From: Escherichia coli
GTDB taxonomy: Bacteria; Pseudomonadota; Gammaproteobacteria; Enterobacterales; Enterobacteriaceae
Reading direction: 5' to 3' (one strand)
NCBI RefSeq assembly: GCF_003334785.1
Contig: NZ_QOWV01000044.1
Length of the DNA: 5,439 nucleotides
Shown here piece by piece: positions 1 to 5,439 of the stretch. How positions within the stretch are numbered: position 1 is the stretch's first letter; each line of letters starts with the position of its first letter. The notes under the pieces were generated by a model that was given only the letters and a program-made list of their open reading frames with translations, ran no database searches and had not been told where the DNA came from. The translations under genes and the position numbers were made by a program.

Positions 1-60
1 GAATGGCCCTCCAACCGTGTTGACGAACTCCTGCCATGGAACGTAGTACTCACCAATAAA

Positions 61-92
61 TAAGCGTCAATACGGTGTTCCGTTGACGCTTA
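61..92 (-). terminator. Stem-loop, possible intrinsic terminator for leftward (minus-strand) transcription
   Basis: Seen in sequence: a perfect 10-bp inverted repeat, TAAGCGTCAA (61-70) and TTGACGCTTA (83-92), around a 12-nt loop that can itself form a 3-bp inner stem (CGG 73-75 with CCG 80-82). On the minus-strand transcript the stem is followed by UUUAUUGG (complement of 53-60). On the plus strand the following bases are not U-rich. It lies about 140 nt downstream of the 234-425 minus-strand gene. Confidence 0.35.
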
Positions 93-233
93 CTATAAAC
101 GTTTCCTGGGATGCGCTGAACACGGCATACAGTGAACACCCGGAGTGGTTTTCTGGGCTTGTCTCCGGGGATGAGAATTAATAAATGGATTATGCTGCCA
201 TCAGGCAGTGTGATTGCCGGCAGGGATTTCGTT

Positions 234-425
234 TTATTCTGTTTCTTCCCGGGGTTCGGGTTTGAATTTTCCCAGAAAGTTGTACATCGGTCGCATGCAG
301 GGATGCGGATAGCCGTCCCGCATAAACACCACCCGGGTTTCCTCAACACTGGTCACGGTGACAAGCGCACCATGATCGTCTTTGTATCGCTGATTGACTT
401 TCGGTAATGGAACATCTTCTGACAT
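234..425 (-). CDS. Small hypothetical protein, 63 aa; possibly DUF4222-like
   Basis: ORF with an ATG start at 425 and a TAA stop; an in-frame stop lies 8 codons upstream, so ATG is the only plausible start. No clear Shine-Dalgarno sequence. The translation (MSEDVPLPKVNQRYKDDHGALVTVTSVEETRVVFMRDGYPHPCMRPMYNFLGK...) is compositionally protein-like, with a YKDDHGALVTVT...RDGYPHPC pattern that I recall from small DUF4222-type proteins of enterobacterial islands and prophages. The family assignment is from memory only. The overlapping ORFs 50-349(-) and 132-407(+) are less protein-like. Confidence 0.5.
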   Translation of the reverse strand: MSEDVPLPKVNQRYKDDHGALVTVTSVEETRVVFMRDGYPHPCMRPMYNFLGKFKPEPREETE

Positions 426-1055
426 AAATTTTAGTACGGTAACAGTTAACTAAATTTTCATGTGGTAGCACTGAATCAGGAGACTGCGTTTCCTGATGTG
501 CGCTGTTAATTTTCTGTTTTTACGAAACATTTTCCCCTTCTTCCTGTGTATTTTATTGCGCTCCTCCTTTCATGTCCTTCCCATATCCTGAAACTCACTT
601 AAATGCTGTTGAATCGTCACGCATTGCAATTTTCAATGACTGAAATCAAAAATTGCTACTTTTTAGGCTAACCAACTGTATTAAAAGCATTCAGTGGAAT
701 AATTTTCTGCACTTTTCCATTAATTATGGTTATAAATTTTGCAATGTGCTGTTTTTGCGATATGTGACAGAATAAAGAACTGTTCATTTGTGCTATATCG
801 ATCGATAAATCTGTCATATTGCTGTAGTTCAGATCATTATTCTATAATGATCAAAAATAAGTCAGCTAAAAATTGGCAGATTTATTGCTCAGCATTCTGG
901 TACCGGTTGATGCGGGTAAATACCGGAAGGGCGGTAGCGTGCCATCGCAAAACATGGTGGGAGGTATCGTCAGGAGGCTGGTGATTGTTGGTATGACATG
1001 AATAAAAGGTTTTTCGTTTGACTGGAAAATTATGTTGCAGGAACGAGAGGGCTGA
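426..1055. promoter_or_regulatory. AT-rich non-coding region, likely promoter and silencing region
   Basis: Hand count of 661-780 gives about 30% G+C, against about 50% in a sampled stretch of the helicase gene (2281-2340). The only ORFs here (739-984 plus, 866-1102 minus) are Cys/Ser/Trp-rich and lack ribosome-binding sites. AT-rich tracts of this kind in horizontally acquired DNA are typical H-NS targets (established knowledge); binding is not shown by the sequence. Confidence 0.4.
819..848 (+). promoter_or_regulatory. Candidate sigma70-type promoter (-35 TTGCTG, 18-bp spacer, -10 TATAAT)
   Basis: Seen in sequence: TTGCTG at 819-824 and a perfect TATAAT at 843-848, oriented rightward toward the tpsB remnant and helicase gene. 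AT-rich DNA contains many chance promoter-like hexamers, so this is weak. Confidence 0.15.
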
Positions 1056-1517
1056 GGAACAAAGCTTATTCCGGCGCTGTCCGTCCTTGCTGTCACTGAC
1101 ACTGATGTCTGTTTTATTATCGCCTTTATCTCTTCAGGCCGCGGATATCAGCGCCAGCTGAGCAATACCCCGCTGACCCCACAGGAACAGTTTGCCATCG
1201 GTAACCGCTGGACGGTTCGTGGTTTTGACGGGGAGCGAACGCTGAATGCCAGTAACGGCTGGTATATCCGCAACGACCTGGCCTGGCGTACGCCACTGCC
1301 GGAGCAGGAGTTATATCTGGGAATGGATTACGGCGAGGTGGGGGGAGCCGGCAGTGAATACCTGGTGGGACGTCATCTGGCCGGTGGTGTTGTGGGGCTG
1401 AGGGGGCAACTGTTCAGTACGGATTATGACGTTTTCATCGGTCGTCCGTTTTCAAAACCGGCGGGTTTTATGACGAGTGATGTGACAGCCGGTTTTAATC
1501 TGTTCCGGGATTTCTGA
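1056..1517 (+). pseudogene. 3' remnant of an Omp85-superfamily two-partner-secretion transporter (TpsB; ShlB/FhaC/CdiB-like hemolysin-activator family)
   Basis: The reading frame is open from the stop at 1053-1055 to TGA at 1515-1517, but the first ATG is at 1323, with no credible start or signal peptide. The translation ...[59 protein letters not shown]...[25 protein letters not shown] contains the conserved (V/I)RG(F/Y) loop-L6 motif of Omp85/TpsB barrels (VRGF at 1215-1226) about 100 residues before a C-terminal aromatic residue (terminal F). Only about 150 codons are present; full-length TpsB proteins are about 550 aa. Confidence 0.6.
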
Positions 1518-1526
1518 GAAAATTTC

Positions 1527-3305
<1,779 letters not shown>

Positions 3306-3730: not shown

Positions 3731-4804
3731 ATGACTTCTGAAGTGAAACTGAAAACCGGTGGTGACCCCCGGTCATTACCGGATTATGCTGCCCTGCGCG
3801 ATGAAATCAGCAAACTGACCCACCCGGCACGCCCGGATGTGGACTGGCGTTACGTGGAAACGCTCTGCCTGCGTCTGTATGAACACAATGGCGTGGAATT
3901 ACAGACGGCATCCTGGTACACCATCGCCCGGATGCATACAACAGGGTTAAGTGGCCTGAATGAAGGGCTGGCTCTGATTGTGGCGCTGACCCGGCATCAC
4001 TGGTCAGTGATGTGGCCGCTGAATACACACGCCCGGCTGGAAATTATTACCGGTCTGTTCAACCGTCTGCAAAAAACGCTCCGGGCCATGCCACCGGATG
4101 ACCGTGACAACCTGCCCCTGCTGTATCAGACCGAAACATTCCTGAAGGAACTGAGTGACACACTGGCCCGGTACGAACTTAAACAGAGCAGTAAAGTGGC
4201 TTTACCGGAAGCCATGGTGAAGGGATATATCACCCGTCTGGAAAATCAGCCGGTGCAGGGCGAAGCGTCGTCTCCGGTAACCCTTCCGGCTCAGGCACTC
4301 CGGTCTGATGCTCGGGACGTACAGGAACATCAGCCCCTGCCGCACTCCCGTCTGGTGTATGTTGTTTCTGAAACAAAAGCAGGGCCCACACCCTCCCTTC
4401 AAAAATCCCCTCCCACGTTTCTGAAACCGTTTGTGACTGGTGTCTGTGCGGCATTGCTGGCGGTCAGCGTGGCCATTCCGGGATGGCAGTATCTGACACA
4501 GCCATCACCGGCGGAGCAGCAACTCAGGGCGCTGCTGACACCACCACCGGATGTGCTTTCAGCAGACCAGATGACACAGCTCAGCAGAACACCCTCACTG
4601 TTAAATCATGCGTCAGAGTGGATAACCCTTTCCGGTCAGCAGATAACGCGACTGACAGAATTACCCCCGGCATATAACCTGCAGCGCAGTGCGCAGTTGC
4701 TGCAGCAACTGATGGTACTTTTCCCCGACAATCGTAAGCGTAAACTGACCGCCGTATGTAGCCATCAGACGAGAATTGGTAACTTAGACGCCCATCTGAT
4801 ATAG
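3731..4804 (+). CDS. Type VI secretion-associated ImpA_N-domain membrane protein (VasL/TssA-like); 3' end apparently replaced by IS66-family terminal sequence
   Basis: ORF of 357 aa. The N-terminal roughly 130 aa (GGDPRSLPDYAALRDEISKLTHPARPDVDWRYVETLCLRLYEHNGVELQTASWYTIARMHTTGLSGLNEGLALIVALTRHHWSVMWP) fit the ImpA N-terminal domain pattern of TssA/VasL proteins, as recalled. A single predicted transmembrane segment FLKPFVTGVCAALLAVSVAIPGW lies at about 4418-4486, consistent with VasL-like topology. The last 23 codons (from about 4733) are encoded by sequence starting with GTAAGCG, which I interpret as the IS66-family terminal inverted repeat, so the native C-terminus is probably lost. No strong Shine-Dalgarno sequence precedes the ATG. 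Confidence 0.55.
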   Translation: MTSEVKLKTGGDPRSLPDYAALRDEISKLTHPARPDVDWRYVETLCLRLYEHNGVELQTASWYTIARMHTTGLSGLNEGLALIVALTRHHWSVMWPLNTHARLEIITGLFNRLQKTLRAMPPDDRDNLPLLYQTETFLKELSDTLARYELKQSSKVALPEAMVKGYITRLENQPVQGEASSPVTLPAQALRSDARDVQEHQPLPHSRLVYVVSETKAGPTPSLQKSPPTFLKPFVTGVCAALLAVSVAIPGWQYLTQPSPAEQQLRALLTPPPDVLSADQMTQLSRTPSLLNHASEWITLSGQQITRLTELPPAYNLQRSAQLLQQLMVLFPDNRKRKLTAVCSHQTRIGNLDAHLI

Positions 4805-4818
4805 ACGGACATCTAAGT

Positions 4819-5244
4819 ATGGAATTACAGGACTGGCGAAAAGAACCTCGTAAAAACTATTCGAATGAATTCAAACTTCGTATGGTGGAACTGGCATCAC
4901 AACCTGGAGCTTGTGTTGCACAGATTGCACGTGAAAATGGCGTCAATGATAATGTTATTTTCAAATGGCTCAGGCTCTGGCAGAACGAAGGGCGTGTTTC
5001 GCGGCGTCTTCCGGTAACGACCTCTTCTGACACTGGCGTTGAATTATTACCTGTAGAAATAACGCCGGATGAGCAGAAAGAACCTGTGGCGGCCATTGCG
5101 CCGTCTTTATCCACTTCCACTCAGACCAGAGTCAGTGCCAGTTCCTGCAAGGTGGAATTCCGTCACGGTAACATGACGCTGGAAAATCCATCGCCAGAGC
5201 TGCTCACAGTGTTGATCCGTGAACTGACCGGGAGGGGAAGATGA
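4819..5244 (+). CDS. tnpA: IS66-family accessory protein OrfA (TnpA), 141 aa
   Basis: Translation MELQDWRKEPRKNYSNEFKLRMVELASQPGACVAQIARENGVNDNVIFKWLRLWQNEGR... matches my recollection of IS66/ISEc8-type orf1 proteins, which carry a helix-turn-helix-like N-terminal region. The stop overlaps the orfB start. Confidence 0.85.
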   Translation: MELQDWRKEPRKNYSNEFKLRMVELASQPGACVAQIARENGVNDNVIFKWLRLWQNEGRVSRRLPVTTSSDTGVELLPVEITPDEQKEPVAAIAPSLSTSTQTRVSASSCKVEFRHGNMTLENPSPELLTVLIRELTGRGR

Positions 5245-5439
5245 TCTCACTCCCATCAGGTACCCGTATCTGGCTCGTTGCCGGCGTTACCGATATGCGT
5301 AAATCCTTCAACGGACTGGGAGAACAGGTACAACATGTGCTGAATGATAATCCCTTCTCCGGTCACCCGGAGCAACACCTCCGCCCCTTCCGGGGTATCC
5401 TGCAGGCGGATGCGTTCACAGGTTACGACAGGTTGTTCA
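5241..5439 (+). CDS. tnpB: IS66-family OrfB (TnpB) N-terminus, partial at window edge; apparently fused in-frame to a transposase (TnpC)-like segment
   Basis: Translation MISLPSGTRIWLVAGVTDMRKSFNGLGEQVQHVLNDNPFSGH matches the IS66 orfB N-terminus as I recall it. The following residues PEQHLRPFRGILQADAFTGYDRLF do not match the expected continuation (LF.FRGRRGD...), and instead resemble the G.LQ.DGY.GY motif region of IS66 DDE transposases. The ORF is open to the window end. Confidence 0.6.
   Translation, partial: MISLPSGTRIWLVAGVTDMRKSFNGLGEQVQHVLNDNPFSGHPEQHLRPFRGILQADAFTGYDRLF

Follow-up and report, generated by a model that had tools for sequence, protein, structure and literature searches.

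What does a solitary fragment of a TpsB transporter gene represent when its TpsA partner is missing and a helicase gene stands in the partner's place? The question is raised by a 5,439-nucleotide stretch of Escherichia coli DNA (contig NZ_QOWV01000044.1 of assembly GCF_003334785.1, hereafter the window), in which a first, sequence-only reading recognised the remnant of a TpsB barrel ending at position 1517. We conclude that positions 1018-1517 are almost certainly a recently inactivated cdiB, the outer-membrane TpsB transporter gene of a class IV cdiB-cdiC-cdiA-cdiI contact-dependent growth inhibition (CDI) locus; deletions have taken the middle of this gene as well as its partner genes. The window as a whole is 100% identical to positions 541-5979 of draft contig GCA_012211965.1 (L006) and, with indels set aside, 99.8-99.9% identical to closed genomes of human enterotoxigenic-type strains such as 214-4 and TW10722. 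It is E. coli island DNA.

Homology at both the protein and the DNA level identifies the fragment. The 123 residues translated from 1146-1514 match the C-terminal end of the barrel in the Pfam family ShlB/FhaC/HecB (PF03865; model positions 226-311 of 311) with an E value of 9.2e-27, and 1146-1517 (plus strand) comprises the last 123 codons (Y457-F579) and the stop codon of a 579-codon gene. At the same island position other E. coli carry this 579-codon cdiB intact, and the remnant DNA is 99.8% identical to it. Among solved structures, CdiB 6WIL (E 2e-79) and CdiB 6WIM (E 3e-53) come nearest to the full-length relative, and FhaC is next. The VRGF motif of loop L6, read directly at 1215-1226 (plus strand), is invariant as V480 R481 G482 F483 in a 12-sequence alignment, and the last residue of the remnant is Phe, at a terminal position that varies among homologues (F, Y, W or G). 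The similarity to TpsB and Omp85 proteins, the VRGF motif and the C-terminal aromatic residue that the sequence-only reading had reported are thus borne out, as is, by the open reading frame (ORF) map, the first ATG of the barrel frame at 1323. Its figure of about 150 TpsB codons shrinks to 123, since positions 1056-1145 in the barrel frame are an out-of-frame reading of the 5′ end of cdiB itself.

The remnant is unable to encode a TpsB. POTRA_2, POTRA_3 and ShlB domains are present in all close full-length homologues; the DNA encoding the POTRA domains (PF08479 and PF17287 in the intact homologues) is missing from the window, and about three quarters of the barrel domain (ShlB positions 1-225 of 311) is gone with it, leaving the last 86 model positions of what in a complete protein is a 16-stranded barrel. 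The surviving signal peptide (1018-1140) and the barrel fragment lie in different, disconnected frames. A fragment this small would not be expected to form a 16-stranded barrel, and the remnant is presumably without transporter function. No NCBIfam family was found for the remnant fragment or for CdiC. An AlphaFold2 model of full-length CdiB built from the 12-sequence alignment reached a predicted local distance difference test score (pLDDT) of 47, too poor for a fold search and giving weak support for a strand count at most. The same remnant in strain 214-4 is called a ShlB/FhaC/HecB pseudogene by RefSeq and its annotation pipeline PGAP. The remnant is therefore already known as an ordinary pseudogene: it is a decayed allele, and both its gene family (TpsB/CdiB) and its type of locus (class IV cdiBCAI) have been described before; a literature search on cdiB pseudogenes in E. 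coli returned nothing on this locus.

Comparison with the intact alleles shows how the gene was broken. Window positions 90-1149 align to 6706-7764 of strain P393-F10 (L003) and are colinear with the region upstream of the intact cdiB in both P393-F10 and strain H22 (L010), with 98.7% identity, while positions 1146-1574 align to 9001-9429 of P393-F10 with a single, synonymous mismatch. In P393-F10 the two blocks are separated by 1240 bp that are missing from the window, and in both P393-F10 and H22 an uninterrupted 579-codon ORF runs across the interval. The junction, which we call junction 1, reads GCGGATATC/AGCGCC (the slash marking the join); the left parent reads GCGGATATCCGG and the right parent CCGGTATCAGCG, and this three-way comparison with the parents in P393-F10 and H22 indicates that the join used a 4-bp TATC microhomology at 1146-1149 (unstranded), which brings cdiB codon 44 up against codon 457. 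Codons 45-456 are lost and, as the length of the deletion is not a multiple of three, the reading frame is shifted. An internal deletion of roughly 1.2 kb had been suggested from the sequence alone; its size was right, at exactly 1240 bp relative to the intact alleles, and its placement, after position 1021, was not. Junction 1 is found identically in strain 214-4 (L001) and in L006-L009, and it occurs in 5 of 5426 complete E. coli genomes. Such an illegitimate deletion at TATC would have cost the protein most of its barrel, the two POTRA domains and, ahead of them, the plug helix and linker at the N-terminus. A ribosome beginning at the native start would produce the signal peptide plus six residues, a product of 47 residues or fewer, and the remaining 123 barrel codons would not be translated from that start.

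Although no signal peptide had been evident to the sequence-only reading, one is retained at 1018-1149, in another frame than the barrel. Recognised by eye and by homology, it has a hydrophobic core and an LQA/AD cleavage site encoded at 1069-1143, and its frame stays open from 1018 to a TGA stop at 1159-1161. This 5′ stub (1018-1149, plus strand) holds codons 1-44, that is, the signal peptide followed by ADI, and shows zero differences from 7633-7764 of P393-F10. Candidate starts for cdiB are TTG 1018, TTG 1087 and ATG 1105. RefSeq begins the E. coli orthologues at the ATG equivalent to window position 1105 (P0022). The annotated class IV cdiB has been described as lacking a signal peptide, and a UUG 18 nt upstream was proposed as its start (Halvorsen et al., PMC8510554); this UUG would be TTG 1087 if the ATG annotated in that study is the one that RefSeq uses. 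The longest cdiB frame begins at TTG 1018, where a GTG or TTG is conserved in the alleles L011 and L012, and the N-terminus that was called for L011, MAGKIYC..., lines up with (M)TGKLCC. For each of the three candidate starts the signal peptide falls within 1018-1140.

The remaining genes of the locus can be accounted for by the organisation of the intact relatives. Class IV loci have the order cdiBCAI, and CdiC lipidates the receptor-binding domain of CdiA (PMC8510554). In H22 the genes downstream of the DUF4222 gene are cdiB, a 175-codon gene for a "toxin-activating lysine-acyltransferase" (cdiC) and a 3010-codon cdiA frame starting MNRNCYRIIFNKARGMLMVV...; after these stand a DUF596 gene, then an orphan VENN fragment accompanied by a small gene, and finally a GIY-YIG nuclease pseudogene ahead of the NERD helicase. 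The order TpsB gene, HlyC-family gene, giant TPS/ESPR gene is kept in more distant loci, which come from Salmonella, Phytobacter and metagenomes, and is that of class IV. An intact cdiB-cdiC-cdiA-cdiI locus upstream of the same NERD helicase is thus found at the same island position in H22, which is where the sequence-only reading had proposed looking for one. Two side observations concern the annotation of these intact loci. RefSeq/PGAP splits the 579-codon cdiB (7633-9372 in P393-F10; 14022-15770 in H22) into a "POTRA domain-containing" pseudogene and a shorter ShlB coding sequence, and it splits the 3010-codon cdiA of H22 (16311-25340) into two pseudogene pieces and a "hemagglutinin repeat-containing protein"; the splitting looks like an annotation artefact rather than real disruption.

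Compared with H22, the window has lost everything from codon 17 of cdiC through codon 5 of the helicase, about 12.5 kb in all, including most of cdiC, the approximately 9-kb cdiA, cdiI, the orphan toxin module and the GIY-YIG pseudogene. Between cdiB and the helicase, codons 1-16 of cdiC, with its start codon, remain (1527-1574, plus strand; identical in 214-4, P393-F10 and H22) of the 175-codon HlyC-family gene of intact relatives, and where H22 has the 3010-codon cdiA frame and then DUF596 the window has neither a giant cdiA nor a cdiI. Parent comparison places the second junction at 1566-1574 (unstranded), where cdiC codon 16 passes in frame into helicase codons 5-6. The missing TpsA is explained because this deletion fuses the start of cdiC to the helicase gene. 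The NERD helicase gene has always adjoined the CDI locus, and its presence in the TpsA slot results from the loss of the DNA that once separated it from the cdiB stump. The earlier observation that the TpsA partner is missing and a NERD helicase lies downstream therefore holds, with the helicase ORF at 1527-3305 and, in intact relatives, the 3010 codons of cdiA in between. No growth-inhibition activity is expected of the window locus because cdiA is absent. Strain 214-4 carries the 1240-bp cdiB deletion together with a second one of 10,355 bp, which begins in the 3′ end of cdiC and reaches the orphan region; its GIY-YIG pseudogene and the native start of its helicase are still present. Relative to 214-4 the window has a further deletion of 2122 bp at an imperfect 9-bp microhomology, TCCGG(T/G)GAG (1566-1574). 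Strain 214-4 thus looks like an intermediate.

One competing account concerns the mini-ORF that precedes the stub. The AGGAGG at 972-977 and the mini-ORF MNKRFFV (ATG 998 to TGA 1021, plus strand) are both present as described in the sequence-only reading, and the TGA stop (1019-1021) overlaps TTG 1018-1020, the likely start of cdiB, within the letters GTTTGA; ATG 998 lies 20 nt from the AGGAGG, which is far for a Shine-Dalgarno sequence. It had been proposed that this mini-ORF is the vestigial start of the original signal peptide, with the deletion directly after it, and we consider this improbable. In the intact loci of P393-F10, H22 and L012 the mini-ORF has the same sequence and is out of frame just as it is here, so that the deletion did not create it. 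The hydrophobic core and cleavage site lie in another frame, and junction 1 is at 1146-1149 rather than after 1021. In homologues from Salmonella, Enterobacter, Lelliottia and Phytobacter the start lies 22-26 residues ahead of the predicted cleavage site, or about 39 residues in allele P0073, and none of them has an MNKR extension. The proposal does draw some support from the distant allele L011 (2970-3010), where the ATG homologous to ATG 998 shares the cdiB frame; its translation begins MDNRLRFFVAGKIYC... and resembles MNKRFFV followed by LTGKLCC, and at this place the E. coli alleles depart from L011 by a net 4 nt. By a weak inference from this one locus, the mini-ORF may be an older start disabled by a separate frameshift common to the intact E. 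coli loci, and it could be either such a disabled ancestral start or a coupled leader ORF. The true start of cdiB lies instead at 1018, 1087 or 1105, in another frame.

Nor does it seem at all likely that the 64-codon ORF at 1323-1517 is a conserved stand-alone small gene rather than debris. It is an open frame with an ATG and is called by automatic gene finders on contigs L008 and L009, but elsewhere the same sequence forms the last 64 codons of a 550- or 579-codon cdiB. It stands alone in the lineage with the 1240-bp deletion only, that is, in the 5 complete genomes and a few draft contigs, and not in many genomes; its product has no signal peptide and is made of terminal β-strands, and PGAP treats the region as a pseudogene, so this alternative is largely refuted. 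That the whole arrangement is an assembly or chimeric-contig artefact of the surrounding IS66 repeats can be dismissed with still greater assurance. IS66-family sequence does flank the window (1-93 and from 4734), and the contigs that carry the arrangement are short, at 5-8 kb. The two junctions nevertheless lie in unique sequence, a long way from the insertion sequence (IS) copies; five closed genomes contain junction 1, and four assemblies produced independently by different projects contain both. An inactivated class IV cdiB remains our reading of 1018-1517, and certain points count against it or blur its outline. The 64-codon ORF is callable, and a small cytoplasmic product may be made from it; if made at all, it would probably be an unstable fragment. 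The deletions could have occurred in two steps through an intermediate like 214-4 or in a single 12.5-kb step. The extent of the remnant, which appears to cover loop L6 and about five terminal strands, is judged from the low-confidence model and from alignment with 6WIL and FhaC.

Among known systems, the closest in kind is CdiB-STEC4 of E. coli STEC_O31 (Halvorsen et al. 2021, PMC8510554), which belongs to the same gene family and locus type as the intact relatives. The comparison was made by locus organisation, toxin type and start-codon problem: P393-F10 carries a CdiA of the Ntox25 type ("polymorphic toxin type 25"), as does STEC4, and the annotated ATG lacks a proper signal peptide, as in the class IV cdiB of that study. 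Relative to the STEC4 locus, the window has a frameshifted cdiB without codons 45-456, a cdiC of 16 codons, and neither cdiA nor cdiI. Of the solved TpsB transporters compared, 6WIL (Acinetobacter baumannii CdiB), 6WIM (E. coli EC93 CdiB) and FhaC (4QKY and 3NJT), the first aligns end to end with the full-length relative, and the remnant corresponds to its C-terminal segment including the L6 (V/I)RG(F/Y) motif; about 21% of the protein is kept, with no POTRA domains and no N-terminal strands. The pseudogene CXX41_RS13115 of strain 214-4 (NZ_CP025840), annotated as [quoted passage not shown], has the identical junction and sequence, and differs in being followed by a 176-codon cdiC ORF, whose last ~100 bp are replaced at the 10,355-bp junction, and by a GIY-YIG pseudogene before the helicase. 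The class IV locus of Salmonella enterica S-1643 is decayed like that of the window (PMC8510554), with an inactivating cdiB mutation and a defective cdiC; there the damage consists of the cdiB mutation and a cdiC frameshift with cdiA retained, whereas here it consists of large deletions.

Decay of this kind is common. A near full-length cdiB of this type is present in 191 of the 5426 complete genomes, while about 1280 carry at least the cdiB 5′ stub, so that decay is the common state of the cdi locus and the remnant is ordinary. Less ordinary is the position at which the gene is broken. The intact site reads GCCGCGGATATCCGGCG and contains a perfect 10-bp palindrome, CGGATATCCG, in codons 43-46 (window 1144-1149; approximately 14158-14167 in H22 and 7757-7766 in P393-F10). 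Metagenome contigs were scanned with the 20 nt to the left of the site, which yielded about 53 true cdiB flanks, and these were combined with the complete genomes. The left breakpoints of at least six different rearrangements fall within 3 nt of the centre of the palindrome, and each of these deletions extends downstream. Class a is that of the window, GCGGATATC/AGCGCC, joined to cdiB codon 457 and found in five complete genomes. Class b (GCGGATA/CCAGATC; 358 complete genomes) joins the interior of IS911 orfB, with the parent GGCGATA/CCAG, and class c (GCGGATA/AGTGGCC; 43 complete genomes including O104:H4) joins the interior of the ImpA_N gene at the equivalent of window position 3949. Class d (GCGGATA/ACCCTTT; metagenome contigs L021 and L070) leads into the VasL region at the equivalent of approximately 4624, class e (GCGGATAT/GCGAAAT; metagenome contig L064) into the interior of IS66 tnpB, and class f (GCGGATA/CCTGACC; the complete genome of strain CUPS TF 6/1_01, L080) into the interior of IS66 tnpC. 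A seventh class breaks 9 nt further on, in a GATGTC allele without the palindrome. The same sample contains further left breakpoints at dispersed positions, namely +308, +497 and +962 and probably +105 and +638.

Classes a-d, for which the right parent is known, show 2-5 nt of microhomology to GGATATC at the junction, and microhomology in class e is inferred via a related IS66 copy. A single nucleotide polymorphism in the left flank, eight nucleotides upstream, differs between classes (C, A or T), which indicates at least three genetic backgrounds. A query of 200 nt with the site at its centre found both sides retained in 867 genomes and the left half only in about 410, and none of the sampled rows holds the right half without the left; the metagenome search was anchored on the left flank and is blind to leftward deletions, so that the evidence for a downstream polarity comes from the 200-nt query. 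Random microhomology deletion is not expected to produce this pattern of breakpoints, which suggests some property of the site. We tentatively propose, as a possibility that we would not yet call probable, that it is a polar deletion hot spot, at which the CDI locus would be destroyed time and again, through downstream deletions that follow a site-specific break or nick in the DNA or a pause in replication. Candidate mechanisms are a sequence-specific nick or break, a gyrase cleavage site, and a polar replication pause with forward template switching. A hairpin or cruciform was dropped as a cause, single-strand folding of the region having given no stable hairpin (z = -0.5). EcoRV-type restriction at GATATC is unsupported, as the right partners are not GATATC sites and the nearby seventh class arose in a GATGTC allele. 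IS-mediated adjacent deletion was rejected as a general cause, because the fixed breakpoint coincides with no IS end and the joins to IS partners fall inside the elements.

The gene downstream of the remnant is a chimera. In the 592-codon ORF at 1527-3305 (plus strand), 16 codons of cdiC lead into helicase sequence that begins at codon 6; the ORF has Pfam NERD and UvrD domains and matches the PADLOC candidate-defence model PDLC01087 "NERD+UvrD" (E 7e-138). The native gene has 581 codons; in the chimera the cdiC N-terminus MRNGKYDVLSPLYSGE stands in place of its MTSGE, and the other 577 residues are those of the native protein, with no mismatches to the helicase of 214-4 after junction 2. At least nine public contigs encode exactly this chimeric protein. 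In relatives the helicase is preceded by the GIY-YIG nuclease gene, which is a pseudogene in every genome examined. The helicase has lost its own upstream sequence and would now use the start codon and ribosome-binding region of cdiC. A promoter, Pcdi, is predicted upstream of cdiB (PMC8510554), and the non-coding region upstream of the remnant (430-1017, plus strand), unchanged and colinear with the intact loci, presumably holds it. Counts in a scan of 400-1700 for consensus promoters and terminators did not exceed those of shuffled sequence, and the cdi promoter was not located by it. If expressed, the helicase would probably be transcribed from the cdi promoter through the remnant.

As for the rest of the window, a long AT-rich non-coding stretch follows the DUF4222 gene (234-425, minus strand). 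An Rfam scan of the whole window gave zero matches, and a repeat search of 400-1700 found nothing beyond short, chance-level repeats. IS66-family sequence bounds the window on both sides, as an element end at 1-93 and at 4734-5439, which explains why draft contigs with this region are just 5-8 kb long. The right-hand copy has tnpA at 4819-5244 and tnpB from 5241, and at 5364-5367 the match jumps to another part of IS66, in the tnpC region. The ORF map also shows a 357-codon ORF at 3731-4804 whose N-terminus resembles ImpA_N/TssA (TIGR03362, E 2e-23, below cutoff) and whose C-terminus resembles VasL; further type VI secretion genes are absent from its surroundings, and its 3′ end is interrupted by the IS66 element at 4734. 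This gene is broken up differently in 214-4, L002 and EDL933. In EDL933, a 348-residue "POTRA domain-containing protein" is a fusion of cdiB 5′ sequence, an internal piece of cdiA and part of the ImpA_N/VasL-like gene.

As a gene the remnant matters little, being one more decayed CDI locus. It is a worked example of how a toxin-delivery locus of about 14 kb is erased stepwise by microhomology deletions, and the recognition that the 592-codon "NERD helicase" is a chimera with a cdiC start is relevant to studies of this candidate defence gene. The hot spot is the sole aspect that may repay further work: if the breakpoint in codons 43-46 is mechanistic, it would provide a natural system for site-specific illegitimate recombination in E. 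coli.

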